Positions 627 through 12,259 of a stretch of 12,259 nt of DNA are shown one piece after another; position 1 is the stretch's first letter, and each line of letters begins with the position of its first letter. The position numbers and the translations under genes were made by a program. The DNA comes from an uncultured archaeon (GTDB lineage: Archaea > Iainarchaeota > Iainarchaeia > Iainarchaeales > CSSED10-239), in NCBI GenBank assembly GCA_964468895.1, contig CAYXWT010000022.1:1-12259 (forward strand), written 5' to 3'. Below the pieces are notes generated by a model. The model worked only from the letters and a program-made list of their open reading frames with translations. It did not search any database and was not told the DNA's origin.

Positions 627-1397
627 ATGAGTGCAGGATTTAGAAGACCTAGAAGAAAACAAAGACAAGAAAAAGTTTTTGATAAAGAAGCATGGACACC
701 TAAAACAGAGCTTGGTGCAAAAGTAAAATCTGGTGCTATCGATAATATAGATTATATTTTTAAAATTGGCAGAAAAATAATGGAACCAGAAATTATTGAT
801 TGTTTAATTCCTGGAATTAAAGCTAAAACTATTGATGTTAAAAAAACTACAAGAGTTACAAGAGCAGGAAGAAATTTTGCTTTTAGAGTAACAGCTATTG
901 TTGGCGATGGAAATGGTCATATTGGTGTTGGAACTGGAAAAAATATAGAAAGAATAACAGCTCAACAAAAAGCAATATTAAATGCAAAAGTTAATCTTAT
1001 ACCTATTAAAAGAGGATGTGGATCTTGGGAATGTAATTGTTCTAAACAACATTCTATACCATATATGAGTCTAGGAAATTGTGCTTCATTAAGAGTTGAA
1101 TTATTACCTGCACCAAACGGTATTGGTCTTGCAGTTAGTGATACTATTAAACCAGTTTTTGAATTGGCTGGTATTAAAGATATTTGGTCTAAAACAAGAG
1201 GTGCTACAGATACTAAACTTAATTTTGTAAGAGCTACAATTAATGCTTTAGAAAATATATCTAAATTAAAATTTAATGAAAAAGAAGAAGAAGAATTAGA
1301 AGAATTAGAAGAAAAACAAGAAGAAGTTATTGAAGATTCTAAAGTTGAAGTTAATAACAAAATTGATACTGAAATTAAAAAAGAAAATTTAGAATAA
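627..1397 (+). CDS. rps5: 30S ribosomal protein S5 (uS5) with a 40-aa acidic C-terminal tail
   Basis: Contains VTRAGRNFAFRVTAIVGDGNGHIGVGTGK and RGCGSWECNCSKQHSIPY...LLPAPNGIGL, typical of archaeal/eukaryal uS5. The GTGA that spans the L18 stop lies 4 nt before the ATG. Confidence 0.95.
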   Translation: MSAGFRRPRRKQRQEKVFDKEAWTPKTELGAKVKSGAIDNIDYIFKIGRKIMEPEIIDCLIPGIKAKTIDVKKTTRVTRAGRNFAFRVTAIVGDGNGHIGVGTGKNIERITAQQKAILNAKVNLIPIKRGCGSWECNCSKQHSIPYMSLGNCASLRVELLPAPNGIGLAVSDTIKPVFELAGIKDIWSKTRGATDTKLNFVRATINALENISKLKFNEKEEEELEELEEKQEEVIEDSKVEVNNKIDTEIKKENLE

Positions 1398-1432
1398 TTA
1401 TATAATGTTGAAAATAAAAAAGGTTGAAAAAC

Positions 1433-1894
1433 ATGTTTGCAGTTATTAGAATTAGAGGACCTATTAAGGTTAATAGAGATATTGAACATACTATGAATTT
1501 ATTAAATCTTACTAGATCTAATCATTGTGTTATATATCCTGAAAATGAAAAAATTAAAGGTATGATTAATAAAGTTAGAGGTTATGTAACTTATGGAGAA
1601 ATTAATAAAGATATTTTTCAAAAGTTGTTATTAAAAAGAGGAAAAGTTTATAATAAAGAAGGTAAATTAAATTATATTAAAGATGTATTTAAGATTACAG
1701 AAGTTGAAACTATGGTAGATGATCTTTTAAGTTCCAAAATAAAGATTTCTGATATCAATTTAAAGCCTGTATTTAGATTAAAACCTCCTTCTAAAGGTTA
1801 TGATAGAAAAGGTATTAAAAAAACATTTAATGAAGGCGGTGCATTAGGTTATAGATCTAATAAAATAAATGAATTATTAAAAAAAATGTTATAG
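1433..1894 (+). CDS. rpl30: 50S ribosomal protein L30 (uL30)
   Basis: MFAVIRIRGPIKVNRDIEHTMNLLNL is the typical uL30 N-terminus. The ORF track starts at TTG 1424, but AGGTTGA at 1421-1427 lies 5 nt before ATG 1433, so 1433 is preferred. Confidence 0.88.
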   Translation: MFAVIRIRGPIKVNRDIEHTMNLLNLTRSNHCVIYPENEKIKGMINKVRGYVTYGEINKDIFQKLLLKRGKVYNKEGKLNYIKDVFKITEVETMVDDLLSSKIKISDINLKPVFRLKPPSKGYDRKGIKKTFNEGGALGYRSNKINELLKKML

Positions 1895-1942
1895 TTATAA
1901 AACATTTTGATTATATATATATTATATTAAAGTGATGATATT

Positions 1943-2311
1943 ATGGGTAAATCTAAAGTTGATAAATTAAGAGGAAAAAGAAGTCACGGTAAAGGTAATA
2001 CTAAAAACAATAGAGGTGCTGGTTGTAAAGGTGGTAGAGGTAGAGCAGGCTCTAAGAAACATAAATTTACTAAATATTATTTAACTTTTGGTATTAAAAG
2101 AAGACTTTGTACTAAAGGAACATTAAAAACTATTAATCTAGTTGATTTAATGCCTTTAATTGAAGATAAAAAAGAAATTAATCTTAAAGAATTAGGTTAT
2201 GATAAAATATTAGGTAAAGGTAATATTACTTGTGCTATTAAATTTAAAAAGGCACTTGCTACTAATGTTGCTAAAGAAAAAATCGAAAAAGCAGGGGGCT
2301 CGGTTGAATGA
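1943..2311 (+). CDS. rpl15: 50S ribosomal protein L15 (uL15), short form
   Basis: LRGKRSHGKGNTKNNRGAGCKGGRGRAGSKKHKF is the glycine/basic uL15 N-terminal motif. GTGAT at 1932-1936 lies 6 nt before the ATG. The stop overlaps the secY start (ATGA at 2308-2311). Confidence 0.9.
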   Translation: MGKSKVDKLRGKRSHGKGNTKNNRGAGCKGGRGRAGSKKHKFTKYYLTFGIKRRLCTKGTLKTINLVDLMPLIEDKKEINLKELGYDKILGKGNITCAIKFKKALATNVAKEKIEKAGGSVE

Positions 2312-3630
2312 ATATTTTAGATAGTATAATTGGAATTTTACCTTCTGTAAAAGCACCAGTTAAAGTACCAACAATTAAACAAAAATTGATTTGGACATTT
2401 GTTGTTCTTTGTTTATTTTTTGTTTTAGGTAGTATTACCCTTATTGGTTTAGATCCTGCCAAAACAGCAGAATTAGGTCTTTACCAAATGATAATGGCAA
2501 GTAACTTAGGTACTTTGATTAGTTTAGGTATTGGACCGATTGTATTAGCTTCTATTATTCTTCAATTATTAGCTGGAGTAAAAATTATAAATTTTGATTT
2601 TTCTAATCCTAAATCAAGAGCAAAATTTAGTGGTATTCAAAAATTATTAGCAATTGTATTATCTGTTGTTGAAGCTATTGTTGCTACAGTTGCAGGTATG
2701 TTAGTTCCACTTCCTGGAATGACATTTTTAGTTATTTTACAAGTAGCTTTTGGATCTATATTATTAATATATTTAGATGAGATTGTAAGTAAATATGGTA
2801 TTGGATCAGGAATTGGTTTATTTATTGCAGCTGGAGTTTCTCAAGCTGTGTTTTGGAGAATATTTGCATTTCCAATGTCAGGACGTGTTGGAGGTTTATT
2901 GTTTCAAGCTTTTACAAGTATAAGTGCAGGGACAACGGTTCAATTGTTCTCAAATATATTGTTGCCAATACTGATGACATTATTTGTATTTTTTATAGTT
3001 GTTTATGCAGAAAGTATGCATATTAATATACCTTTAACAGTTGGAAGAAGTGGTATGGGTGCCAAATACCCTGTTAAATTATTATATGTTTCAAACATGC
3101 CTGTAATTTTAGCAGGAACTTTGTTTGCAAATATTAGGATGCTTGGTGGAGTATTTAAAAATTCTTCATTTTTTGCAGTAATAAACAATTTTATAGCAAG
3201 TCCAAATGGTTTGTTGCAAACAATAATTTATGGTGGTGCAACCACATCAATGATACTTAATGCTTTAGGATATATGGTCCTATTTGTTGTAACATGTGTT
3301 ATCTTTGGTAAGTTTTGGGTAGAAGTAGGTGGACAGAGTGTAAGTAGTGTTGCACAACAATTACAAAGAAGTGGAATGTCTATACCTGGATTTAGAAGAG
3401 ATGAAAGAGTGATAGTTGGAGTACTAAATAGATATATTCCAACAATAGTAATTTTAGGATCTGTATTTGTAGGTCTTTTATCATTTTTTGCAGATATTAC
3501 TGGTGCAATAGGAACTGGAACAGGAATTTTATTAACTGTTGGTATAATATATAGGTTTTATGAACAATTAGCAAAAGAACAAGCATTTGAATCAAGCGCA
3601 TTATTAAAACAAATAGCAGGTAAAAAATAA
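2308..3630 (+). CDS. secY: Preprotein translocase subunit SecY
   Basis: A 440-aa polytopic membrane protein of about 10 hydrophobic segments, placed immediately after L15. Contains SNLGTLISLGIGPIVLASIILQLL and YLDEIVSKYGIGSGIGLFIAAGV, which are SecY/Sec61alpha-like motifs. Confidence 0.95.
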   Translation: MNILDSIIGILPSVKAPVKVPTIKQKLIWTFVVLCLFFVLGSITLIGLDPAKTAELGLYQMIMASNLGTLISLGIGPIVLASIILQLLAGVKIINFDFSNPKSRAKFSGIQKLLAIVLSVVEAIVATVAGMLVPLPGMTFLVILQVAFGSILLIYLDEIVSKYGIGSGIGLFIAAGVSQAVFWRIFAFPMSGRVGGLLFQAFTSISAGTTVQLFSNILLPILMTLFVFFIVVYAESMHINIPLTVGRSGMGAKYPVKLLYVSNMPVILAGTLFANIRMLGGVFKNSSFFAVINNFIASPNGLLQTIIYGGATTSMILNALGYMVLFVVTCVIFGKFWVEVGGQSVSSVAQQLQRSGMSIPGFRRDERVIVGVLNRYIPTIVILGSVFVGLLSFFADITGAIGTGTGILLTVGIIYRFYEQLAKEQAFESSALLKQIAGKK

Positions 3631-3643
3631 AATTTGATGTTAT

Positions 3644-4096
3644 ATGATGGAATTTCCTCTGTTTGGTGCTTGGATAGATATTATAGTAATTTGTATAGTG
3701 TATTCTTTAATAGTGAAATTAATACAACATCTTTTAATAAAACCTAAAGAATATATTCAAGTAAAATTAGAATCTAAAAAATTAAATAAAGAAATGCAGG
3801 CTTTAATTAAAGAACAAAAAGTTGAAGAAGCTCAAAAAAAACAAAAAGAAAGTTTAATATTAATGCAAAAACAAATGAGTTTTACAATGAAACCTATGAT
3901 GGTTTTGATGATTGTTGCTTTCCCTTTGTTATGGTTTATAAAAAAATATTATGGGGAATTAAGTTATAATTTTGGACTATTTACAGTTTCTGGAATTTGG
4001 GCTTATGTGATAATTGCAACTGTTATATCATTGATAATATCAACTGTTTATGATAAAAATTTAGAAAAAAAATACGGACAAGAATTAGTAAAATAA
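3644..4096 (+). CDS. DUF106-family membrane protein (archaeal Oxa1/YidC/EMC3-like insertase homolog)
   Basis: The 150-aa protein has TM1 (IDIIVICIVYSLIVKLI), a lysine/glutamate-rich coiled-coil hairpin (KLESKKLNKEMQALIKEQKVEEAQKKQKE), then TM2 and TM3. This is the DUF106 architecture. The slot downstream of secY in archaeal clusters is conserved. The family call rests on topology and synteny, not on an alignment. Confidence 0.65.
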   Translation: MMEFPLFGAWIDIIVICIVYSLIVKLIQHLLIKPKEYIQVKLESKKLNKEMQALIKEQKVEEAQKKQKESLILMQKQMSFTMKPMMVLMIVAFPLLWFIKKYYGELSYNFGLFTVSGIWAYVIIATVISLIISTVYDKNLEKKYGQELVK

Positions 4097-4126
4097 AAAT
4101 AACAAAATATTTAATTGGTGAAATTT

Positions 4127-4468
4127 ATGCCTAATCCAAATGAAAGATTTAAAAAACACAAGTTTGTAAGAACTCCTGGTGGAAAACTTAAAAGAAATTT
4201 AGTTAAGAAAAAAACATCTAAACACAAATGTGCAGTATGTTCTAAAATACTTAACGGTGTTCCTCATGGACTTAGAACTTTTGAAGTAAAAAGACTAAGT
4301 AAAACTCAAAGAAGACCTGAAAATCTATTATCGTCTATTCTTTGTCCTAAATGTAGAGAAATCGCATATCACGATGCAGTTATGTTAAAGTATAATCTTA
4401 AAGAAGAAAAAAACTTAGATTTTAGATATGCAAAATATGTAAAAATGATTTTAAATAAAATCGAATAA
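4127..4468 (+). CDS. rpl34e: 50S ribosomal protein L34e (eL34)
   Basis: Contains HKFVRTPGGKLKRNLVKKK, then C..C (CAVCSKILNG) and C..C (CPKCREI), an eL34 zinc-ribbon pattern. The ORF track begins at TTG 4115, but GGTGA at 4117-4121 lies 5 nt before ATG 4127. Confidence 0.88.
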   Translation: MPNPNERFKKHKFVRTPGGKLKRNLVKKKTSKHKCAVCSKILNGVPHGLRTFEVKRLSKTQRRPENLLSSILCPKCREIAYHDAVMLKYNLKEEKNLDFRYAKYVKMILNKIE

Positions 4469-4496
4469 AATATAATTAAAAAAATTGTGAATGATT

Positions 4497-4655
4497 ATGG
4501 GTATTTTAATTCCAGGTAAGAAATGTATTATTATGCAAGGTAAAAACTTTGGTAAGAAAATAATTGTAGATAAAGTTGATAAAAACTTTGTTTATTTTAA
4601 ACTAGATGATAAAGAAAAAAAGTTATCTTTATTACATGTTTTTCCAATAGAATAA
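4497..4655 (+). CDS. rpl14e: 50S ribosomal protein L14e (eL14), minimal 52-aa KOW-type form; absent from the supplied ORF track
   Basis: Hand translation gives MGILIPGKKCIIMQGKNFGKKIIVDKVDKNFVYFKLDDKEKKLSLLHVFPIE then TAA at 4653-4655. The G..C....G...GK..IV..VD.NFV ... L.P pattern resembles the archaeal L14e KOW core. GTGA at 4487-4490 lies 6 nt before ATG 4497. The position after L34e fits the archaeal order. Confidence 0.65.
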   Translation: MGILIPGKKCIIMQGKNFGKKIIVDKVDKNFVYFKLDDKEKKLSLLHVFPIE

Positions 4656-4681
4656 AAAAATTAAATTGATGAGTGATATTT

Positions 4682-5302
4682 ATGGCTAAAGCAAAAAAAG
4701 GAAATAAATCAAATTCAAAACCTAGAAAAGGTAATCCTAAATCTAAAAAACCTAATAAAAAAAATATAACAATTGTTGTAAAGAAGAAACATACAGATAG
4801 ATTAAGATTACAAAAAGCAAAACCTGTACCATCTCACATTGATTTAACTAAAGAAAGCGAAGATTTTAAACATGTTGTTAGAATTGCTAGTAGAGATTTA
4901 CCAGGATATATGACTTTAAGTCAAGGTTTAGATTTAATTTATGGTATTAGTAGTAGAGTTTCAGATTCTGTTAATAAAATTTATACTAAAAAAACAGGTA
5001 AAGTTATTAACAAAATTGGATATTTAACAGATGAAGATGTTGTTATAATTCAAGAAATTTTAGAAAATTTAGATTCTTATGTGCCTAAATGGTTATTAAA
5101 TAGATCTAAAGTTATGGAAGGCGGATGTAAACATTTAATTATGGCTGATTTAAAACTTTCTCAAAGAAGAGAATTACAAAGATTAGGTAAAATTAAAAGT
5201 TATAGAGGATTAAGATTACAATGGGGACTTCCTGTTAGAGGTCAAAGAACAAGATCTACTTTTAGAAGAAGTGGTGTTGTTGGAGTTAATAAGAATAAAT
5301 AG
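4682..5302 (+). CDS. rps13: 30S ribosomal protein S13 (uS13) with a lysine-rich N-terminal extension of about 58 aa
   Basis: The core EDFKHVVRIASRDLPG...GISSRV...LGKIKSYRGLRLQWGLPVRGQRTRS is uS13. The ORF track starts at GTG 4673, which lies inside the GTGAT Shine-Dalgarno site. ATG 4682 follows that site by 5 nt. Confidence 0.9.
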   Translation: MAKAKKGNKSNSKPRKGNPKSKKPNKKNITIVVKKKHTDRLRLQKAKPVPSHIDLTKESEDFKHVVRIASRDLPGYMTLSQGLDLIYGISSRVSDSVNKIYTKKTGKVINKIGYLTDEDVVIIQEILENLDSYVPKWLLNRSKVMEGGCKHLIMADLKLSQRRELQRLGKIKSYRGLRLQWGLPVRGQRTRSTFRRSGVVGVNKNK

Positions 5303-5351
5303 AAATTATAAAAAAATTCTATTTTATTGAATTTAATTAAGGTGATTTATT

Positions 5352-5921
5352 ATGGGAGAACCAAGACGTTTAAGCAGACAGTATGATGTTCCAAGAAAAT
5401 TATGGGATAAAAGAAAAATAATATCTGATAAAAAGTTAACTAAAGAGTTTGGACTTAAAAGTAAAAAAGAAATCTGGAAAGCTGAAACTAAAGTTAGAAT
5501 TTTAAGAAAACTTGCTAGAAATTTACTTGCAGGTAATGTAGATAATTATGAACTTAGAAAAAACGAATTACTAAATAAATTAATTAATTTAGGTGTTTTT
5601 ACTAAAGAACATAAATTAGAAGATGTTTTAAAATTACAATCTATAGATTATTTAGAAAGAAGATTACAAACACAAGTTTTAAGAAAAGGTTTATCTTTAA
5701 CTGCTAATCAATCAAGACAATTAATAATTCATAAACATATTGCAGTTAATGGAAGAGTTAGAAATGCTCCTTCATCTTTAATTACTATAAATGATACAAT
5801 TTCATATTCAAATTCAAAAATAAAAAATATAATTGATAAGCAAATAGAAAGTAAAGGAAAATCTACTGTTGTAGATAAGAAAAGTGAAGATGCTGCAAAA
5901 ACAGTAGAAAATAAGGTGTGA
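5352..5921 (+). CDS. rps4: 30S ribosomal protein S4 (uS4)
   Basis: MGEPRRLSRQYDVPRKLWDK is an archaeal uS4 N-terminus. An S4 RNA-binding domain follows (LERRLQTQVLRKGLSLTANQSRQLIIHKHIAVNGRV). GGTGAT at 5341-5346 lies 5 nt before the ATG. Confidence 0.92.
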   Translation: MGEPRRLSRQYDVPRKLWDKRKIISDKKLTKEFGLKSKKEIWKAETKVRILRKLARNLLAGNVDNYELRKNELLNKLINLGVFTKEHKLEDVLKLQSIDYLERRLQTQVLRKGLSLTANQSRQLIIHKHIAVNGRVRNAPSSLITINDTISYSNSKIKNIIDKQIESKGKSTVVDKKSEDAAKTVENKV

Positions 5922-5926
5922 ATTTA

Positions 5927-6313
5927 ATGAGTAAAGAAAAAATAGGAATTGTAAATATTTTTGCTTCTAGAAATAATACCATGATTGTTTTAACAGATGA
6001 AACTGGTGCAGAAATTATTGCAAAATGTACTGGTGGACAAATGACTAAATCTCAACATAAAGAAGGTTCTCCTTATATAGCTTCTAAAATTGCTCAAAAT
6101 GTTGCAGATAAAGCTAGAGATAAAGGTATTACAAGAGTTCATGTTAAAATAAGAGCTCCTGGTGGAAATTTATATTATAATCCTGGTCAAGGTGCTGAAG
6201 CATCATTAAAATCCTTAACTAGAGCTGGATTAAATATTTTAAGTATTAGTAATACAACTCCTGTACCACATGATGGTTGTAGAAAGAAAAAATGTTATAG
6301 AAAGAAAAGATGA
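5927..6313 (+). CDS. rps11: 30S ribosomal protein S11 (uS11)
   Basis: Contains GIVNIFASRNNTMIVLTDETG...SPYIASKIAQNVADKARDKGITRVHVKIRAPGG...TPVPHDGCRKKK. The ORF track starts at GTG 5918, but AGGTG at 5914-5918, running into the S4 stop, is the Shine-Dalgarno site for ATG 5927. Confidence 0.93.
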   Translation: MSKEKIGIVNIFASRNNTMIVLTDETGAEIIAKCTGGQMTKSQHKEGSPYIASKIAQNVADKARDKGITRVHVKIRAPGGNLYYNPGQGAEASLKSLTRAGLNILSISNTTPVPHDGCRKKKCYRKKR

Positions 6314-6351
6314 TTTTTTTAAATATTAAATTATGTGTGTGTGATTAATAA

Positions 6352-7089
6352 ATGGTTAAAGTAAGTTTTTTAAAAAAGGAAGAGAAACTAAATAAATTTT
6401 TAGTTGAAAAAATAGATGCAAGTCTTTTAAATGTTTTTAGAAGAATTTCTTGCTATAATATTCCAATATATGCTATAGAAGAAATTGATTTTATAGAAAA
6501 TGATTCTGTGATTGTAGACGAAATGCTTGCTAATAGGATAGGACTTTGCCCAGTTTATACACCATTAGATAATACTGGTAAAAAAGTTACTTTTAGTTTA
6601 GATAAAATTGGACCAGGAGTAATATATAGCAAAGATTTAATTTCAAATGATTCTGAAATTAAAATGACTTGTGATAGTATTCCTCTTACAAAACTAAGTG
6701 ATAATCAAAAATTAAAATTTGAAGCTTTTGCAGTATTAGGTAAAGGCAGTACACATGTAAAATATTCTCCAGCAATTGTATCTTATAGCCAATTAGTTGA
6801 TTTTGAAAATCTAAAAGGTTGTGATGGTTGTGGAATTTGTGTGAATGCATGTCCTAAAAATAATATTAAATTAGTAGCTAATAAACCTAAAATTATTGAT
6901 ATTTATAAATGCGATGCCTGTAGAGCTTGTGTAGATTCTTGTCCAAAAACACTTTTAAAATTAATATATTCAGATAATTATATTTTAAATGTAGAATTAA
7001 TTGGACAAACCACAGTGAAAAGTTTAATAAAAGAAACAAAAAGATATACTAAAGAATATTTTATGCTTCTAAAAAAGAAATTTAAATAA
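6352..7089 (+). CDS. rpoD: DNA-directed RNA polymerase subunit D (Rpo3) with a two-cluster ferredoxin-like insertion
   Basis: LLNVFRRISCYNIPIYAIEEIDFIENDSVIVDEMLANRIGLCPV is the RpoD/Rpb3 dimerisation-domain signature. Two complete C..C..C...CP motifs are present (CDGCGICVNACP and CDACRACVDSCP). The position after S11 is canonical. Confidence 0.9.
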   Translation: MVKVSFLKKEEKLNKFLVEKIDASLLNVFRRISCYNIPIYAIEEIDFIENDSVIVDEMLANRIGLCPVYTPLDNTGKKVTFSLDKIGPGVIYSKDLISNDSEIKMTCDSIPLTKLSDNQKLKFEAFAVLGKGSTHVKYSPAIVSYSQLVDFENLKGCDGCGICVNACPKNNIKLVANKPKIIDIYKCDACRACVDSCPKTLLKLIYSDNYILNVELIGQTTVKSLIKETKRYTKEYFMLLKKKFK

Positions 7090-7105
7090 ATTAAATTTAT
7101 TTTTT

Positions 7106-7187
7106 GCTGGGTTTCCCGAGCGGTCAAAGGGGCTGGACTTAAGATCCAGTGCTTAGTGCTTCGCAGGTCCGAATCCTGCACCCAGCA
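7106..7187 (+). tRNA. tRNA-Leu, anticodon TAA (UAA), type II with a long variable arm; no encoded CCA
   Basis: Hand fold: acceptor GCTGGGT (7106-7112) pairs with ACCCAGC (7180-7186), with discriminator A at 7187. The D stem is CCC/GGG with a GG-containing loop. The anticodon stem is CTGGA/TCCAG around loop CTTAAGA (anticodon 7140-7142). The variable region is 13 nt. The T stem is GCAGG/CCTGC with loop TCCGAAT. This is also a local GC-rich island in AT-rich DNA. Confidence 0.9.
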
Positions 7188-7226
7188 TTTAATATTAAAA
7201 AATAAATTTTGTTAATGTGATATTTT

Positions 7227-7583
7227 ATGAAAAGATTAAATAAAAATTTAGATAAAAAAGAAATTATTGTCAAATTATATAATATGGCAAAATCTAAGAA
7301 AAAAGATATTTATGCTAGTTTAGCTAAAGAACTTGAAAAATCTAGTAGATTAGAAGTAAGGGTTAATTTAGGAAAAATGGAAAGTCTTAAATATATTAAA
7401 GATGGAGATATAGTTGTTGTTCCAGGAAAAGTTTTAGGTACTGGTTTATTAAATAAAAATATAACAATTTATTCTTATAGTGTTTCTAAAGTTGCTAGTG
7501 AAAAATTAAAAAATAATGTAAAAAATTTAATGGATTTTTGTAATGATGATATTAATTATAAAGTTACAAAAATAATAAAATAA
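7227..7583 (+). CDS. rpl18e: 50S ribosomal protein L18e (eL18)
   Basis: A 118-aa protein containing VRVNLGKMESL...GDIVVVPGKVLGTG, which is eL18/L18e-like. The slot between rpoD and L13 is conserved. GTGAT at 7217-7221 lies 5 nt before the ATG. Confidence 0.82.
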   Translation: MKRLNKNLDKKEIIVKLYNMAKSKKKDIYASLAKELEKSSRLEVRVNLGKMESLKYIKDGDIVVVPGKVLGTGLLNKNITIYSYSVSKVASEKLKNNVKNLMDFCNDDINYKVTKIIK

Positions 7584-7610
7584 ATGATTTGATTGTATTG
7601 GTGAAATATT

Positions 7611-8036
7611 ATGGTTATTATAAATGCTAAAAATAAAGTTTTAGGAAGATTGTGTTCTCAAATTGCAGAAAAATTATTAAAAAGTGGAGCTAAGGTAATA
7701 GTAGTTAATTCTAGATATGCTATTATAACAGGTAAGAAAAAAGAAATTTTTAAAAGATACTCTGACTTAACTTCTAGAAAAGGAAAAGGTAATCCTCTTA
7801 AAAACCTAAAAAACCCAAGATATTCTGATAAAATAATTAAAAGAACAGTAAGAGGTATGTTACCAAGAAATGCAAAAGGAACTAGTGCTTTAAGAAAATT
7901 AAAAACATATATAGATGTTCCTGAAGTTTATTTTAATGATGTTCCTAAAGAAGTAAATGTGTCTGAAGTTTTACATATTACTTTAGAAGATTTATCTAAA
8001 TATTTAGGTGCAAAGTTAAAGGATGTAAAAAAATAA
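7611..8036 (+). CDS. rpl13: 50S ribosomal protein L13 (uL13)
   Basis: Contains IINAKNKVLGRLCSQIAEKLLKSGAKVIVVNS...ITGKK and VRGMLPRN.KG..ALRKLK, which are uL13 motifs. GGTGA at 7600-7604 lies 6 nt before the ATG. Confidence 0.92.
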   Translation: MVIINAKNKVLGRLCSQIAEKLLKSGAKVIVVNSRYAIITGKKKEIFKRYSDLTSRKGKGNPLKNLKNPRYSDKIIKRTVRGMLPRNAKGTSALRKLKTYIDVPEVYFNDVPKEVNVSEVLHITLEDLSKYLGAKLKDVKK

Positions 8037-8075
8037 ATTTTATTATATATAAAAATTTGGAAAAGTGATATTAAT

Positions 8076-8480
8076 ATGGTTAAAAACTATTTTGTAAAAT
8101 CTTCAAGAAAAAAAGCAAAAGCAAGATGTTTGGTTAAAAAAGGTGCAGGAAATATACATGTAAATAATGCTCCTATAGATGCAAAATATAGTGGTTATAA
8201 ATTAGAATTAATTAAAGAACCAACTTATATTGCTCAACCAGAATTTGAAAAATTAGATTTTTTTGTAAATGTTAGTGGTGGAGGAATTTCTGGACAAGTT
8301 CAAGCTATAAGATCTTGTGTTGTTAAAGGAATTTTAGAAGCAAATAATAATAAAGAAGAATTAAAAAAAGTATTTTTAAGTTATGATAGACATTTAGTTG
8401 TTGATGATGTTAGACAAAAAGAAGAATACAAACAACTTGGTCGTGGTGCAAGATCTAAAAAACAACATTCTAAAAGGTAG
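8076..8480 (+). CDS. rps9: 30S ribosomal protein S9 (uS9)
   Basis: Contains GGGISGQVQAIRSCVVKGIL and the C-terminal RQKEEYKQLGRGARSKKQHSKR, with the uS9 terminal SKR. GTGAT at 8065-8069 lies 6 nt before the ATG. Confidence 0.92.
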   Translation: MVKNYFVKSSRKKAKARCLVKKGAGNIHVNNAPIDAKYSGYKLELIKEPTYIAQPEFEKLDFFVNVSGGGISGQVQAIRSCVVKGILEANNNKEELKKVFLSYDRHLVVDDVRQKEEYKQLGRGARSKKQHSKR

Positions 8481-8494
8481 AGGTGTATTTAAAT

Positions 8495-8683
8495 ATGATT
8501 TGTCCTGTAAGATGTTTTTCATGTGGTCAGGTTGTTGCTGACAAATATGAGGCTTATAAAAAATTAATAGACGATGGTAAAAGTCCTGAACAAGCTTTAG
8601 ATTTGTTAGGTGTTAAAAAATATTGTTGTAGAAGAATGTTGCTAACACATGTTGAATTAATAGATGAAGTTATTAAATTTTAA
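8495..8683 (+). CDS. rpoN: DNA-directed RNA polymerase subunit N (Rpo10)
   Basis: MICPVRCFSCGQVVADKYEAYKKL...KKYCCRRMLLTHVELIDE is the Rpo10/RpoN zinc-bundle signature. The ORF track starts at GTG 8483, inside the AGGTG Shine-Dalgarno site at 8481-8485. ATG 8495 gives the canonical MI.P.RCF.CG N-terminus. Confidence 0.95.
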   Translation: MICPVRCFSCGQVVADKYEAYKKLIDDGKSPEQALDLLGVKKYCCRRMLLTHVELIDEVIKF

Positions 8684-8728
8684 TTATTTAACTTATATTT
8701 TTAATAATGTATTTAGAAGTGAAAGATT

Positions 8729-9505
8729 ATGGTTGAAAAAGAAATAAATGTAAAAAGATCAGATAATAAATATAGATATAAATCTAGAACATTAGTAAAC
8801 ATAGATTTATATTTAAAAAATGGAATTCATATTGGTACTAAATATAAAAATGGACCTATGAGAAGATTTATTTTTAAATCTAGAAGTGATAAATTAAATG
8901 TAATGGATGTACAAGCTATAGATCAAAGAATAAAGATAGGAATTGATTTTTTACTTAGATATGATCCTAAAGATGTAATTTTTATATCTAGAAAGAAATA
9001 TGGTTTACCTGGTTTAAAAGTTTTAGAAAAAACTTTTGGATATAAAAATATAGTTAATAGATTTGTTCCAGGTACTTTTACAAATCCACAAAGAGAAGGA
9101 TTTACAGAACCTAAACTTGTTTTTATTTGTGATCCTAATATAGATAGACAAGCAATAGTTGAAGCAACTAAAATTAGTATTCCAGTTATGGCATTATCAA
9201 CCACTTCAAGTAATATAAGGAATATAGATTTAGTATTACCATTTAATAACAAAGGAAGAAAAGCAATATCTTTATTTTTCTGGTTATTAAATAGAGAATT
9301 ACAACTTAGAAATGGTATCATAAAATCAGAACAAGAATATTCTTATTCTGTAGAAGATTTTTTATTTAAAGTAGATAAAAAGGATTCTAGAGGAAAAGGA
9401 AGTTTTAATAGAGGTAGTAGAAGTTCTGGAAGATTTGGTAATAATAGATCTGGTAGAACAAATAATTATAGAAGTAATACTAATCCTAGACCTAAAAATT
9501 TATAA
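8729..9505 (+). CDS. rps2: 30S ribosomal protein S2 (uS2) with a 39-aa Arg/Gly/Ser/Asn-rich C-terminal tail
   Basis: Contains YLKNGIHIGTKYKNGPMRRFIFKSRSDKLNVMDVQ, VFICDPNIDRQAIVEATKISIPVMAL and NNKGRKAISLFFWLLNRE, which are uS2 motifs. GTGA at 8719-8722 lies 6 nt before the ATG. Confidence 0.92.
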   Translation: MVEKEINVKRSDNKYRYKSRTLVNIDLYLKNGIHIGTKYKNGPMRRFIFKSRSDKLNVMDVQAIDQRIKIGIDFLLRYDPKDVIFISRKKYGLPGLKVLEKTFGYKNIVNRFVPGTFTNPQREGFTEPKLVFICDPNIDRQAIVEATKISIPVMALSTTSSNIRNIDLVLPFNNKGRKAISLFFWLLNRELQLRNGIIKSEQEYSYSVEDFLFKVDKKDSRGKGSFNRGSRSSGRFGNNRSGRTNNYRSNTNPRPKNL

Positions 9506-9524
9506 AATTTAATATTAAATCAGA

Positions 9525-9532
9525 TTTTTTTT
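9525..9532 (+). terminator. Oligo-T tract (T8), candidate archaeal intrinsic terminator ending the ribosomal cluster
   Basis: A run of 8 T begins 20 nt after the S2 stop, at the first sizeable (121-nt) intergenic gap after about 9.4 kb of tight packing. T runs are common in DNA this AT-rich, so confidence is low. Confidence 0.35.
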
Positions 9533-9626
9533 ATAAATGTTTAGTAGGATTTGTTATTCTGTAATGTGATATATTTAAAAAGTCTTTTAAGTATAATAAA
9601 TATAGATATATGTGTGGTGATGATTT

Positions 9627-10346
9627 ATGTTAAATAATAAAATTATTGATTTGTTATTAAGTCTTGGATTAACTGAGTATGAATCTAGAACTCTTAGTAC
9701 TTTATTTAAATTTAATGAATCTGACGCTCCAAATATAAGTAGAAATGCAGAAATTCCTAAAACTAGAGTTTATGATGTTCTTGATAAATTAAAAGCAAAA
9801 GGTCTTGTTTTAGAAGTATATGGTAGACCTAAAAAATATAGAGTTATAGATGCTAATGAAATATTTAATAGTTTATTAGAATCTAAAAGAAAAGATCTAG
9901 ATATTTTAAATAATAATGTTAAAGATATTTTAATAAAAGAAAATTGGAATTCTTATATTGGTACTGATGAAAAAATATTACAAGTAAAAAATATAGGTGA
10001 TTATAATAAATTATTAGCTCAAGAATTAAATTGTGCTAAAAAAGAAATTTTTGGTTTTACACATTTAGATGAAAGAAGTGATGCTTTTAAGAATGTTTTT
10101 ACAAATCCTAAATTAAATATTAAATTAATAACTAAACCTTCATCTAAAAAGCATAACATTCCAAAACATGTTGAAATTCAAGAACAAGAACATTCAATGG
10201 ATGCTTTTGTTGTAGATAAAAATAAAGTTATCATGTCTTTAAATGATTTGGTAAAACCTAAAAATACATATCATTTAACAGTTTTAAAAAACAATCCTAG
10301 TTTAACAAAAGCTTTATTAAATCATTTTGATAGTTACTGGAAATAG
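9627..10346 (+). CDS. TrmB-family (COG1378-like) winged-helix transcriptional regulator
   Basis: The N-terminus LLSLGLTEYESRTLSTLFKFNESDAPNISRNAEIPKTRVYDVLDKLKAKGLVLEVYGRPKKYRVID matches the TrmB-type wHTH pattern (LGL..YE...Y..L.......A..I......IP..RVYDVL..L...G.V). A coiled-coil-like linker and a C-terminal domain of about 130 aa follow. GGTGA at 9616-9620 lies 6 nt before the ATG. Confidence 0.75.
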   Translation: MLNNKIIDLLLSLGLTEYESRTLSTLFKFNESDAPNISRNAEIPKTRVYDVLDKLKAKGLVLEVYGRPKKYRVIDANEIFNSLLESKRKDLDILNNNVKDILIKENWNSYIGTDEKILQVKNIGDYNKLLAQELNCAKKEIFGFTHLDERSDAFKNVFTNPKLNIKLITKPSSKKHNIPKHVEIQEQEHSMDAFVVDKNKVIMSLNDLVKPKNTYHLTVLKNNPSLTKALLNHFDSYWK

Positions 10347-10350
10347 TTTG

Positions 10351-10359
10351 TTTTTTTTT
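10351..10359 (+). terminator. Oligo-T tract (T9) immediately after the TrmB-family gene, candidate terminator
   Basis: TTTG followed by T9 starts right after the TAG at 10344-10346, inside the 16-nt gap between the convergent genes. AT-rich background applies here too. Confidence 0.3.
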
Positions 10360-10362
10360 AAA

Positions 10363-11403
10363 TCAAATTTCTATTTTTTTTATTATTTCTCTAATTCTAT
10401 TAAGTGTTTTTAAATTTTTATTAGTTTTATTAGTATTATATTTTTTAAGATATATTTTATATCTTCTTTTTATTTCTATTATTGCTTTTTCTTGAACTAA
10501 TTTATCATCTATTATTGCTTTTTTAATAGTATTTATACCCATATCTGTAGGTGCTTTATAATTTCTCATTTTATTATTTTTACAAGTTATTTTAGAAATT
10601 ATTTTTTTTAATATTTTAAAATTTTCTATATCTCTATTATAATTTATTGCAATTTTATTATAGTTTTTTTTATAATAAGGATCAATTAGATTTTGATCTT
10701 CTAAATCTGCTGTTGCAGCTTCATAAGCTAAATTTACTGGATGATTAAGTTTTAAATTCCAAACAGGAAATGTTTCAAATTTAAAATAACCTGATTCTAT
10801 ATTATTTATTTTTAAATCAGAATATATTTGTGATAAGCAAACGCACATTTTACCAGAATTTGAATTGTGACTTGTAACTATCACAATATTTTTTTTTGTT
10901 TGTATATAAGGTTGTTTTAAATACCCATTTTTACCTAGAATTATTTTTAAATTATTAGGATATTGTTTAATATCTTTTGTAGTATATACTTTAAATTTTA
11001 ATTTATTTAATCTTTGGATAAATTTTTCAGTGATTTTATTTTGTTTATTATATCTTGTTATAACAATATTAATATTTTTAAATTTATTTTTTAAATATTT
11101 TATTTCTTTAAAAACTTCTTTTTGTTGTTTTTCTTTTGTATAATCTGCAGAATCTTTTTCTAAATGTTTTGAATATATACAATATATTATTTCAATATTT
11201 TTTTTAAGTTTTTGAATTATTTTGATTTTATTATTTTTATCATAATCTTTAAAAACTCGTGAAGTATGATTATCATTAATTATGTGACCACCAATTTCTA
11301 TGTATACTTTTTTAAAACATTTTAATCTTTTTTTAATTTCTTTAATTTGTTCTTCTATATATTTATTGTTATCAAATATTTTTATTTTTGCCATATTAAT
11401 CAT
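10363..11403 (-). CDS. DUF1846/UPF0371-family protein, apparently lacking the C-terminal third of the family
   Basis: Contains FDNNKYIEEQIKEI...VYIEIGGHIINDNH and SGKMCVCLSQIYSDL...GYFKFETFPVWNLKLNHPVNLAYEAATADLEDQNLIDPYY...IAINYNRDIENFKILKKII.KIT......YKAPTDMGIN. These closely resemble the conserved blocks of UPF0371 proteins as I recall them (about 490-500 aa in Firmicutes and methanogens). An alternative start is the second ATG at 11394 (MAKIKIF). Confidence 0.65.
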   Translation of the reverse strand: MINMAKIKIFDNNKYIEEQIKEIKKRLKCFKKVYIEIGGHIINDNHTSRVFKDYDKNNKIKIIQKLKKNIEIIYCIYSKHLEKDSADYTKEKQQKEVFKEIKYLKNKFKNINIVITRYNKQNKITEKFIQRLNKLKFKVYTTKDIKQYPNNLKIILGKNGYLKQPYIQTKKNIVIVTSHNSNSGKMCVCLSQIYSDLKINNIESGYFKFETFPVWNLKLNHPVNLAYEAATADLEDQNLIDPYYKKNYNKIAINYNRDIENFKILKKIISKITCKNNKMRNYKAPTDMGINTIKKAIIDDKLVQEKAIIEIKRRYKIYLKKYNTNKTNKNLKTLNRIREIIKKIEI

Positions 11404-11605
11404 ATTTTAAAATTTATATTTTATCTTGATTATAGATTTATTAAAAAATCTATTTATAAAGCTTGCCTAATATATATTATATTATATATTGAGTATTTTT
11501 TATTTAATTTATATAAAAATACTGTGAGATATATCTAATTTTAATATGTCTCTTAATAAAAAAATTTAAAATCAAAGCTGATGAATATTTTGGAGGTAGT
11601 TTATT

Positions 11606-12259
11606 ATGGCTGAGTTCGTAAAATTTCAAGTATCAGAAGACTTAAAAACTTTACAAAAAGATGTTTTAAGTAAAATTTCTAAATCAGGTAAAATAAAAAT
11701 TGGAATCAATGAAGTTACAAAAGTTATAGAAAGAAATACAGCAAAATTAGTTTTAATCGCAGAAGATGTTAGTCCTGCAGAAATTATAATGCATGTACCA
11801 ATTTTATGTAAAGATAAAAAAGTTCCTTTTAGTTATGTAAAAACAAGAGAAGAATTAGGTAAAATATCAGGAATTAGTGCTAAAGCAAGTTCTATAGCAG
11901 TTATAGATGAAGGAGTTGCTAAAAAAGAATTTACTTCATTATTAAATAAAATTGCAGAAATTTCTGGAGATAAACCAAAACCAGTTTCTACAAAAGAACC
12001 TAAGGCTAAAGTAGTTAAAGAAGAACCTAAGGTAGAAGTAGCTAAAGAAGAACCTAAGGCTAAAGTAGTTAAAGAAGAACCTAAGGCTAAAGTAGTTAAA
12101 GAAGAACCTAAGGTAGAAGTAACTAAAGAAGAACCTAAGGCAGAAGTAGTTAAAGAAGAACCTAAGGTAGAAGTAGTTAAAGAAGAACCTAAGGTAGAAG
12201 TAGCTAAAGAAGAACCTAAGGTAGAAGTAGTTAAAGAAGAACCTAAGGTAGAAGTAGCT
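11606..12259 (+). CDS. rpl7ae: 50S ribosomal protein L7Ae (eL8 family, k-turn-binding) fused in frame to a C-terminal KEEPKVEVV tandem-repeat tail; 3' end lies outside the window
   Basis: Hand translation from ATG 11606, with GGAGGT at 11592-11597, gives MAEFVKFQVSEDLKTLQKDVLSKISKSGKIKIGINEVTKVIERNTAKLVLIAEDVSPAEIIMHVPILCKDKKVPFSYVKTREELGKISGISAKASSIAVIDEG. This matches the L7Ae/L30e signature G.NEVTK.IER..AKLV.IAEDV.P.EI..H.P.LC..K.VP. There is no stop in 218 codons to the window end. The gene is not in the supplied ORF track because it is open-ended. Confidence 0.9.
   Translation, partial: MAEFVKFQVSEDLKTLQKDVLSKISKSGKIKIGINEVTKVIERNTAKLVLIAEDVSPAEIIMHVPILCKDKKVPFSYVKTREELGKISGISAKASSIAVIDEGVAKKEFTSLLNKIAEISGDKPKPVSTKEPKAKVVKEEPKVEVAKEEPKAKVVKEEPKAKVVKEEPKVEVTKEEPKAEVVKEEPKVEVVKEEPKVEVAKEEPKVEVVKEEPKVEVA
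11993..12259 (+). repeat. 27-bp in-frame tandem repeat with consensus AAAGAAGAACCTAAGGTAGAAGTAGTT; one 24-bp degenerate unit plus 9 full units, truncated by the window end
   Basis: Full units start at 12017, 12044, 12071, 12098, 12125, 12152, 12179, 12206 and 12233. Units 1, 7 and 9 are identical, units 2 and 3 are identical, and units 6 and 8 are identical. Differences are confined to codons 6, 7 and 9 of the unit. Confidence 0.95.

Follow-up and report, generated by a model that had tools for sequence, protein, structure and literature searches.

A repeat array encodes a clade-wide, predicted disordered tail on the ribosomal and sRNP protein L7Ae in an Iainarchaeota lineage

L7Ae is usually pictured as a minimal K-turn binder of ~120 residues, common to archaeal ribosomes, to sRNPs of the box C/D and H/ACA classes, and to RNase P. 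It binds K-turns in rRNA, in C/D and H/ACA sRNAs, and in RNase P RNA, and it is much used in synthetic biology. Outside archaea, the PEVK region of titin is an entropic-spring segment in which P, E, V, and K make up at least ~70% of residues. Eukaryotic snoRNP proteins (Nop56, Nop58, and Cbf5/dyskerin) bear lysine-rich intrinsically disordered regions (IDRs) of the KKE/D type, which have a positive net charge, alternating charge blocks, and lysine doublets spaced by acidic residues, and which undergo salt-sensitive coacervation with RNA and engage in homotypic and heterotypic interactions (PMC11528048). Lysine-rich snoRNP IDRs are stated to be absent from archaea (PMC11528048). The published l7ae leader is a K-turn with a GAU bulge, tandem G:A pairs, and the Shine-Dalgarno (SD) sequence in its C helix; in A. 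fulgidus its bulged strand reads ...GGGCCGAUGAAUG... (PMC6298567; PMC5539422).

Here we describe an L7Ae gene at the end of a 12,259-nt window (the whole stretch of DNA that was analyzed) whose product has a canonical core and a long repetitive extension. Solved archaeal L7Ae proteins are 106–128 aa long, with one of 145–149 aa, and none is tailed at the C-terminus, whereas the protein in the window adds ~100 residues that are predicted to be disordered.

A canonical L7Ae core followed by an in-frame repeat array

The open reading frame that starts at ATG 11606 on the plus strand runs without a stop for 218 codons to 12259. Residues 18–106 match Pfam Ribosomal_L7Ae (PF01248) at 88.2 bits (gathering cut-off 22.1, E = 3e-25), and PDB L7Ae chains match the core at E = 4e-33. 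The TIGR03677 equivalog model is matched over positions 1–116 of 117, with 132.7 bits for the window protein and 134.0 for the allele P0001, 0.6–1.9 bits short of the 134.6 cut-off; the runner-up family scores 39.7 bits. AF2 modeling of P0001 recovered the alpha-beta-alpha sandwich of solved L7Ae, and the best Foldseek matches of the predicted core were all L7Ae (target-normalized TM ~0.9, rmsd 1–2 Å). The canonical proteins of A. fulgidus (4BW0/1RLG), M. jannaschii (1XBI), P. furiosus (2HVY), and S. solfataricus (3PLA) have the same fold (TM ~0.9) at 40–50% identity. With the window protein they also share the NExxK K-turn-binding helix, the operon position ahead of S28e-L24e, and a leader whose K-turn, predicted in the case of the window, covers the SD.

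The K-turn-contacting NExxK helix is present as GINEVTKVIER, with N35, E36, T38, and K39 invariant across 54 sequences. Loop 9 departs from the canonical form: where canonical L7Ae has G(I/L)xV(G/P), the window protein has GISAKAS, and every tailed member of its clade has GI(S/N/G)AKAS. Tail-less relatives retain the canonical hydrophobic loop, G-I/L-x-V-G/P. The order L7Ae-S28e-L24e is found in three related contigs (L002, L003, and L004), with S28e lying 25 nt past the L7Ae stop codon and L24e after it. The related loci were covered over 3–10 kb to each side of L7Ae. We take it as shown that the ORF beginning at 11606 is the syntenic eL8 gene (L7Ae) of this organism, standing first in a conserved L7Ae-S28e-L24e operon.

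Upstream of the gene lies a putative K-turn that may occlude L7Ae's own ribosome-binding site, and its motif agrees with the published leader (PMC6298567). The bulged strand would comprise GCU (11577–79), a GAU bulge (11580–82), and GA (11583–84), followed by a loop; the non-bulged strand, G-GA-GGU (11592–97), coincides with the SD sequence GGAGGT, 8 nt 5' of the ATG. This arrangement, (A/G)CC-NAU-GA ... G-GA-GGU, is kept 5' of L7Ae in both tailed and tail-less Iainarchaeota loci. An Rfam scan of 9400–12259 returned nothing relevant, the sole match being rli22 at E = 0.14.

Features of the L7Ae locus, in window coordinates.
Feature	Position	Strand	Evidence
Predicted autoregulatory K-turn leader, with the Shine-Dalgarno sequence in its non-bulged strand	11577..11597	+	Motif conservation and literature match
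L7Ae (eL8) core, residues 1–120	11606..11965	+	Pfam, TIGR03677, PDB, AF2, Foldseek
Linker GDKPKPVST between last core helix and repeat array	11966..11992	+	Translation; identical junction in L002, L003, L004
Tandem array of 27-nt units, predicted disordered polyampholyte tail	11993..12259	+	TRF, pattern scan, unit table, AF2, composition
Copy-number polymorphism: two units, EEPKVEVAK EEPKAKVVK (54 bp), in the window and missing from L002	12020..12073	+	BLAST and unit-by-unit comparison

The last core helix is followed by a conserved G or SG throughout the clade. Beyond the linker, the array consists of one degenerate unit and nine more, the final one lacking only its last AAA codon at the window end. 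The unit, AAA GAA GAA CCT AAG GYW RAA GTA RYT, encodes K-E-E-P-K-[V/A]-[E/K]-V-[V/A/T]. Tandem Repeats Finder reported 11994–12257 with period 27, 9.8 copies, 93% matches, and a score of 445, and the degenerate unit GAAGAACCTAAGGYWRAAGTA matched 10 times in the window and not once in 200 shuffles. Within the window, 98 residues of the tail can be read (121–218); the probability that a random stretch of 98 codons at the array's base composition would contain no stop is ~3e-5. The possibility of an antisense or alternative-frame gene was rejected: stops abound in plus frames 2 and 3 of the array, and the two open minus-strand frames, which are open only because the unit has no reverse-strand stops, lack a start, homology, and context.

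A first-pass annotation of this DNA had proposed a normal L7Ae core that continues past GDKPKPVST into an in-frame repeat tail. The Pfam match and the fold prediction bear out the core, and the stop-free translation gives the units in exactly the order listed there. The data show that the predicted C-terminal tail of ~100 residues is genuine, in frame, and encoded by 27-bp tandem units.

Strain alleles and the integrity of the assembly

By BLAST, L002 is 99.66% identical to the window. It and L003 and L004 are three independent assemblies from different samples; all have the same core-linker-array junction and read through to a stop. In L002 and two other contigs, the allele ends ...KEEPKAVKE and a stop, followed by S28e and L24e. 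Comparing the L002 allele with the window suggests that the latter ends about nine codons and a stop short of an expected terminus at ~227 aa, unless this strain has more units. The L003 array has fewer units than the window, plus one of 24 nt. Alleles thus differ by whole in-frame units, as in the 54 bp that the window has over L002, and copy number therefore appears polymorphic, as had been suggested from the window's sequence. The array accordingly has the features of a coding minisatellite with copy-number polymorphism.

The first-pass annotation had also noted that a sequence ending inside an array looks like an assembly break at a repeat. In agreement with this, the Logan contig L001 comes to an end at 11983 of the window, just ahead of the array, and the window itself stops within it, so copy numbers drawn from short reads are unreliable. 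These two ends are also what could be cited for an assembly artefact, either a chimera in which L7Ae is fused to a repeat from elsewhere, which that annotation had raised, or a collapsed or mis-assembled array. However, the same junction, in-frame array, stop, and downstream S28e and L24e recur in the three separate assemblies, and homologous tails occur in ~80 related sequences of many sources. Because three independent contigs span both junction and array, a chimera is effectively refuted, and we give an artefact of any of these kinds a negligible probability.

Distribution and evolution of the tails

Tails of 24–127 aa are present in 21 of 21 species-level genomes of one Iainarchaeota (DPANN) clade, a raw per-species count that ignores phylogeny, and in none of its sister clades. 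Clade members include Ca. Forterrea multitransposorum (CP045477), with a tailed L7Ae of 179 aa. A search of L7Ae orthologs for C-terminal K/E/P/V repeats, a step proposed in the first-pass annotation, thus found tails throughout the clade, and also in scattered archaea. K/E/P/A/V tails of differing repeat period occur in ~60 L7Ae protein clusters (at least 60% identity), and ~25 further archaeal L7Ae clusters (50% identity) are tailed, including that of the cultured Ferroplasma acidiphilum (WP_171481583.1, 193 aa). The tails of L026, L034, L080/82/83, the ~25 other clusters, and Ferroplasma are apparently independent. Publicly deposited tailed proteins from the clade and from F. acidiphilum have, as in the window lineage, a core and a K/E/P/A-rich low-complexity tail that mostly ends ...KE. 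The array of the window lineage is among the longest and most regular (9-aa unit, 93% match, V-rich), whereas others differ in unit or period or have decayed. The earlier claim that such a tail is rare was therefore overstated, since related genomes commonly carry one. A literature search for a description of tailed L7Ae found none in the papers covered; tailed L7Ae is under-described, not unique.

Nearly the same 9-residue K/E/P/V/A unit is found on another small ribosomal protein: bacterial-type S16 (PF00886; P0121–P0123, P0126) carries 6–8 KKEEPKVEA repeats at its C-terminus. Because the protein families differ, the S16 and L7Ae tails are convergent, not homologous. A homology search with the tail alone gave six matches (bacterial-type S16 and two unknown proteins) and no archaeal proteins; it missed even the known alleles and is therefore uninformative on other tailed proteins in this genome. 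An exact 22-mer of the unit had a single, unrelated match in JGI metagenomes, a protein of 169 aa (L085) in which EEPKVEVVKEEPKAE occurs once, as a linker.

Array periods across the clade range from 21 to 69 nt, differ between species, and are all multiples of 3. Synonymous variants are fixed by lineage: every unit of L002 has AAG and GTA, and every unit of L004 has AAA and GTT, in line with the homogenization at synonymous sites that had been proposed for the window. Whole-unit differences between strains that are otherwise nearly the same, and synonymous variants that run through all units of a lineage, show an array that grows, shrinks, and is homogenized, evidently via in-frame slippage or unequal recombination, with units evolving in concert. 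Some clade tails (L006 and L013) have decayed to non-repetitive low complexity.

We estimated dN/dS as 0.154 for the tail and 0.138 for the core, with the precision of the tail value inflated because each homogenized change enters the count anew for every unit. A tally of events in the tail by eye gave ~6 synonymous and 8–10 non-synonymous changes, or omega ~0.4; this value, too, lies below 1, although it is weaker evidence. The C-terminal residue is E in 16 of 18 clade tails compared to ~25% expected, again as raw counts with kinship ignored. This conserved ...KE end may be due to constraint on the nucleotides, imposed by the adjoining ribosome-binding site of S28e, and not to protein function. 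We conclude from these comparisons that the predicted tail is long established and characterizes the whole clade of this one Iainarchaeota lineage, in which tail presence, K/E/P/A/V composition, and an acidic C-terminal end are conserved, and sequence and repeat period are not.

Polymer properties and possible role of the tail

In the AF2 model of P0001, residues 121–209 have a pLDDT of 45–56 and no secondary structure, compared to 88–96 in the core, consistent with the disorder predicted in the first-pass annotation. The window tail has a charged fraction of 0.53 and a net charge per residue of -0.02, with no arginine and no aromatic residues; lysine makes up 25% of it (19–39% across the clade) and P+E+V+K 86%. 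Clade tails have charged fractions of.45–.75 and net charges per residue of -.06 to +.13 (mean +.03), and means over 80 tails are K.30, E.25, P.10, A.11, V.09, R.000, N.01, and I.007. Charge is well mixed, as measured by an in-house implementation of the Das-Pappu kappa (0.037 for the window tail, 0.007–0.054 for six relatives). KK doublets number 0 in the window allele, 20 in P0026, 12 in P0056, and 8 in L009. AT-bias was rejected as the source of this composition: the tail GC of.35 exceeds that of the window (.245), the array has hardly any N, I, F, or Y, and clade tails are almost without N, I, and L despite a GC of 22–39%. The tail thus appears to be a near-neutral, well-mixed strong polyampholyte with ~10% proline and no sticker residues. 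Its likeness to titin PEVK, which is likewise P/E/V/K-rich, disordered, and punctuated by proline, is one of sequence alone; PEVK is built of 26–28-aa PPAK or polyE motifs rather than a 9-aa unit, in an unrelated protein and organism.

Because of these properties, the tail would be expected to form an expanded, highly hydrated, non-sticky chain. Probably translated and retained on the protein, it would project from all L7Ae-bearing particles, that is, the 50S subunit together with, where the organism has them, sRNPs of the box C/D and H/ACA classes and RNase P; such decoration of ribosomes and sRNPs is plausible. There it could work as a bristle or spacer, steric or entropic, that aids solubility, lessens non-specific association, or makes weak transient contacts, and it would not be expected to serve as a specific binding domain. 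Taken as a whole, a real, clade-wide, slippage-driven disordered tail that forms a hydrated, non-sticky bristle or spacer on L7Ae particles is the explanation we favor, at slightly better than even confidence, its functional step being drawn from sequence-based polymer physics.

The tail could instead be a neutral, mutation-driven appendage: the L7Ae C-terminus tolerates additions, purine-rich AAA/GAA runs readily slip, and a functionless tail expands and decays. C-terminal GFP fusions of L7Ae are used in synthetic biology, and one was among the proteins searched (P0136), so this terminus is permissive. The lack of conservation in sequence and period, a five-fold range in length, the decayed tails, and the sporadic presence of similar tails on ribosomal proteins other than L7Ae and in unrelated lineages all fit a neutral origin. 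However, no clade species has lost the tail even though a single transversion would turn ~55% of its codons (those for K and E) into a stop. Moreover, its composition avoids the N/I/L/F/Y expected of AT-rich drift at a GC above the genomic value, its dN/dS is ~0.15 or, by event count, ~0.4, and its C-terminal residue is non-random, and we consider neutrality unlikely. Rather less likely still is that a lysine-rich tail acts as KKE/D domains do, making multivalent electrostatic contacts with nascent rRNA or other tails that gather L7Ae-bearing sRNPs and precursors of the ribosome where rRNA is made, in a proto-nucleolar manner. Like KKE/D IDRs, the window tail is a long, terminal, lysine-rich and arginine-free strong polyampholyte, predicted to be disordered, on a core sRNP and ribosome protein involved in rRNA modification. 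Some clade members have literal KKE/D repeats (P0026, with KKEEP ~20 times; P0056, with KKEDV/KKEDP; and P0059), and the yeast domains drive rRNA proximity and self-association (PMC11528048). Yet the window tail has a net charge near zero rather than positive, no KK doublets, abundant proline, valine, and alanine, and, with its relatives, kappa values below 0.06 compared to the.1–.4 reported for the blocky lysine-rich IDRs of eukaryotic Cbf5; and its carrier is the ortholog of Snu13/Nhp2, not of Nop56/58 or Cbf5. That the tails are an archaeal counterpart of KKE/D, convergent or ancestral-like, which would gather L7Ae particles around nascent rRNA, is by this analogy a long shot. If true, it would imply a primitive membrane-less organization of ribosome biogenesis in tiny DPANN cells and would contradict the published view of such IDRs as a eukaryotic invention.

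The statement that archaeal snoRNPs are without lysine-rich IDRs (PMC11528048) is qualified by tailed L7Ae. The arrays break short-read assemblies, and they yield truncated or variable gene calls for a protein used as a phylogenetic marker. The tails also offer a natural series in length, period, and K/E pattern that could be used to study composition-level selection, concerted evolution of IDRs, and the role of tails on RNPs. Finally, the picture of a minimal, ~120-residue L7Ae needs qualifying: a whole DPANN clade and scattered other archaea, the cultivable Ferroplasma among them, add to it a charged tail of 30–125 residues that appears to be under selection and is predicted to be disordered.

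L7Ae gene, leader and repeat tail

The L7Ae frame stays open for 218 codons up to the end of the window, with GGAGGT 8 nt 5' of its ATG. After the linker GDKPKPVST, TRF found a 27-nt unit repeated 9.8 times (93% matches, score 445), and a degenerate form of this unit matched 10 times in the window versus 0 times in 200 shuffles. Plus-strand frames 2 and 3 of the array are stop-rich, and the chance of 98 open codons is P ~3e-5. The translated units are identical to those listed in the first-pass annotation, and the open frame, TRF array and unit scan together bear out its description of an L7Ae whose in-frame repeat tail runs off the window.

The core is a normal L7Ae, as that annotation had also held. 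Residues 18-106 match Pfam Ribosomal_L7Ae (E = 3e-25), and AlphaFold2 modelled residues 10-120 of a tailed allele, P0001, at pLDDT 88-96. The top PDB matches by Foldseek and phmmer are all archaeal L7Ae (TM ~0.9, 40-50% identity, E to 4e-33), with chains of 106-128 aa and one of 145-149 aa. The NEVTK helix is invariant. The full-length match to TIGR03677, the eL8/L7Ae equivalog, scores 132.7-134.0 bits against a cut-off of 134.6, a shortfall that a derived loop 9 may account for. In our alignment, every member of the tailed clade reads GI(S/N/G)AKAS in this loop instead of the canonical G(I/L)xV(G/P); the form G(I/L)xV(G/P/A) is seen in tail-less relatives and in solved structures. Because this split follows tailed versus tail-less relatives, alteration of the RNA-contacting loop co-occurs with tail gain.

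A K-turn-like leader precedes the gene (table below). The (A/G)CC-NAU-GA ... GGAGGU arrangement is kept 20-45 nt upstream of the ATG in both tailed and tail-less relatives (L006-L036); in place of the GCC of relatives the window reads GCU, which makes a U-G wobble. In published autoregulatory l7ae leaders the bulge is GAU, G:A pairs occur in tandem and the C helix contains the Shine-Dalgarno sequence; the window leader sequence fits this translational autoregulation element (PMC6298567; PMC5539422). Given the core features and this leader, the window gene looks, at the sequence level, like a functional, autoregulated L7Ae orthologue.

Features of the window and of one locus matching a 22-mer of the repeat unit
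Feature	Position	Strand	Remarks
uS5	627-1397		acidic C-terminal tail
ORF opposite uS5	962-1489	-	175 aa
SecY to S13 interval	3630-4673		
54-aa ORF	4491-4655		no confident family assignment
uS13	4673-5302		N-terminal extension
uS2	8729-9505		258 aa
ORF opposite uS2	8923-9321	-	132 aa
DUF1846 (PF08903) protein	10363-11403	-	E = 5e-100
K-turn-like leader	11577-11597	+	
GCU-GAU-GA	11577-11584	+	
G-GA-GGU	11592-11597	+	Shine-Dalgarno, non-bulged strand
L7Ae start codon	11606		
L7Ae loop 9	11870-11890		residues 89-95
Repeat array	11994-12257		
Two units extra to L002	12020-12073		54 bp
L085 ORF	562-1071 of L085	-	169 aa

Related contigs and neighbouring genes

Four related contigs (L001-L004) were reached via the neighbouring DUF1846 protein and L7Ae homologues. 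L002 (ENA, 28 kb), 99.66% identical to window positions 1606-12221, crosses the whole array: 8 full units are followed by GAAGAACCTAAGGCAGTTAAAGAATAG, encoding EEPKAVKE and a stop. S28e begins 25 nt on, then L24e, aIF5B, S6e and aIF2-gamma; L7Ae-S28e-L24e is a canonical archaeal operon. Junction, stop and operon are the same in L003 (99.1% identity) and L004 (92.9% identity), and all three contigs read from core into repeats without a stop or chimeric join, the two faults for which a check had been proposed. This agreement rules out the tail as an assembly artefact, a reading to which we give virtually no weight. If its end matches that of L002, the window L7Ae would be ~227 aa long.

The first-pass annotation had further suggested that copy number might be polymorphic and that the sequence ends at an assembly break within the repeat. 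The window has two units more than L002, the unit count is lower in L003, where one unit is 24 nt long, and L001, a Logan contig, stops at window position 11983, immediately 5' of the array; both the polymorphism and the breakage are therefore real.

At 24.5% GC the window is AT-rich, and it spans an archaeal cluster of ribosomal-protein genes in the order L18, S5, L30, L15, SecY, EMC3-like, L34e, S13, S4, S11, RpoD, L18e, L13, S9, RpoN, S2, TrmB, DUF1846 and L7Ae. The DUF1846 gene is divergent to L7Ae, a layout also seen in L002 and L003. In many archaea adk, cmk, L14e and cbf5/truB sit between SecY and S13; none is present in this interval of the window, which holds only the EMC3-like membrane protein, L34e and the 54-aa ORF. 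uS5 has an acidic tail of ~40 residues (…KEEEELEELEEKQEEVIEDSKVEVNN…KKENLE) and uS13 a K/N/P-rich extension of ~55 residues, so several ribosomal proteins of this organism bear charged extensions; among those in the window, only that of L7Ae is a tandem repeat. The C-terminal uS2 tail (~45 residues, R/G/S/N-rich, …SRGKGSFNRGSRSSGRFGNNRSGRTNNYRSNTNPRPKNL) resembles a GAR/RGG region and is atypical for archaeal S2. The antisense ORFs opposite uS5 and uS2 look like by-products of composition, not genes.

Distribution and evolution of the tails

A core-only search returned ~60 clusters at >=60% identity, all of 150-224 aa with K/E/P/A/V tails of differing units; remoter matches were 110-135 aa. 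The nearest GTDB species representatives belong to Iainarchaeota (Diapherotrites); one of them is the complete genome of Ca. Forterrea multitransposorum. In a neighbour-joining tree of cores, the window and 20 GTDB genomes form one clade whose every member is tailed (24-127 aa), and no tails were found in the GTDB genomes of sister Iainarchaeota clades, Nanohaloarchaea or Aenigmarchaeota. L026, L034 and the L080/L082/L083 group apparently gained tails separately. With an exhaustive phmmer search over 1.84 billion representatives we found ~25 more 50%-identity clusters with K/E/P/A tails, one being the annotated L7Ae of cultured Ferroplasma acidiphilum (WP_171481583.1). As the whole clade, further clusters and F. 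acidiphilum carry tails, the tail is not unique: the initial view of it as an oddity among archaeal L7Ae does not hold, and, by the criterion that the first-pass annotation itself had set, it is real but not unusual within the lineage. Public databases already list tailed proteins, named simply as L7Ae, and no description of a tailed archaeal L7Ae was found in the literature searched.

Searching with the tail alone brought up bacterial-type S16 proteins (PF00886; P0121-P0123, P0126) with 6-8 C-terminal copies of KKEEPKVEA, whose close likeness to the L7Ae KEEPKVEVA units is convergence. The sole match to an exact 22-mer of the unit in JGI metagenomes was L085, which encodes an unrelated protein whose two folded-looking halves are joined by one EEPKVEVVKEEPKAE linker. 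P0136, from a metagenome-derived protein collection, is a 351-aa A. fulgidus-type L7Ae-GFP fusion that entered public data as a synthetic construct or a contaminant.

Repeat periods in the clade (21, 24, 27, 30, 36, 39, 42, 51, 57, 63 and 69 nt) are species-dependent and all multiples of 3; in two tails the repeats have degenerated into low-complexity sequence that is no longer repetitive. Comparing L002 and L004, alleles of equal length, we obtained a dN/dS of 0.138 for the core (dS 0.129) and of 0.154 for the tail (dS 0.52), the latter counting homogenised changes per unit, with a rough by-eye event count giving omega ~0.4. The two alleles differ synonymously (AAG to AAA, GTA to GTT) in essentially all units per lineage, a pattern of concerted evolution, judging from these alignments, that agrees with the homogenisation proposed earlier. 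Clade proteins end in E in 16/18 species and in KE in 10/18, where composition predicts 25% and 9.5%, and other tailed lineages share this bias. In L006-L025 the L7Ae stop abuts the S28e Shine-Dalgarno (e.g. GAA TGA GGTGA...ATG), 10-25 nt before S28e, and either a motif at the C-terminus or a nucleotide-level constraint imposed by the abutting ribosome-binding site may underlie the bias.

In the window tail, K makes up 25%, E 26%, V 23%, P 12% and A 7%; the charged fraction is 0.53, the net charge per residue is -0.02, the charges are very well mixed (kappa 0.037), and there are no KK doublets. Array GC is 35% versus 24.5% for the window, which rules out AT bias as the source of the tail. Means over 80 tails are K.30, E.25, P.10, A.11, V.09 and R.000, with N, I, L, F and Y near 0, charged fractions of.45-.75 and net charges per residue of -.06 to +.13. 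Over residues 121-209, the P0001 model has a pLDDT of 45-56 and lacks secondary structure, so the tail is predicted to be disordered, as anticipated.

Possible roles of the tail

The syntenic L7Ae carries a C-terminal extension that is conserved across the clade, is resized by slippage and is predicted to be disordered. Taken together, repeat periods, composition, substitution pattern and C-terminal residue argue for selection on its presence and composition and not on its sequence. The same evidence, dN/dS included, weakens a neutral, tolerated expansion, which we consider unlikely. By the Das-Pappu polymer rules, a well-mixed, near-neutral strong polyampholyte is an expanded, hydrated chain that self-associates poorly. 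The tail, with proline and without Arg or aromatic stickers, would be such a chain, and on this ground we lean towards its serving as a bristle or spacer, steric or entropic, on the particles that contain L7Ae.

A role in RNA proximity or condensation like that of KKE/D domains, which are lysine-rich IDRs on eukaryotic snoRNP proteins, seems quite improbable. The tail is likewise a lysine-rich polyampholyte, and relatives P0026, P0056 and P0059 have literal KKE/D repeats. However, KKE/D domains, abundant lysine-rich strong polyampholytes, lie on Nop56, Nop58 and Cbf5, are net positive, group their charges in blocks and contain lysine doublets, with kappa 0.1-0.4 in Cbf5 IDRs (PMC11528048). The L7Ae tails share lysine richness, predicted disorder and high charge with them, but differ in net charge (zero), blockiness (kappa very low), subunit and, in the window allele, doublets. 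At most, the L7Ae tail is a KKE/D analogue, not a member.

KKE/D domains have been described as "absent from archaea" (PMC11528048). The tail is a clade-wide, recurrent L7Ae variant and not a singular oddity. Little described and apparently under selection, this disordered tail of a central RNP protein provides a counter-example to the view that lysine-rich IDRs are missing from the sRNP proteins of archaea.
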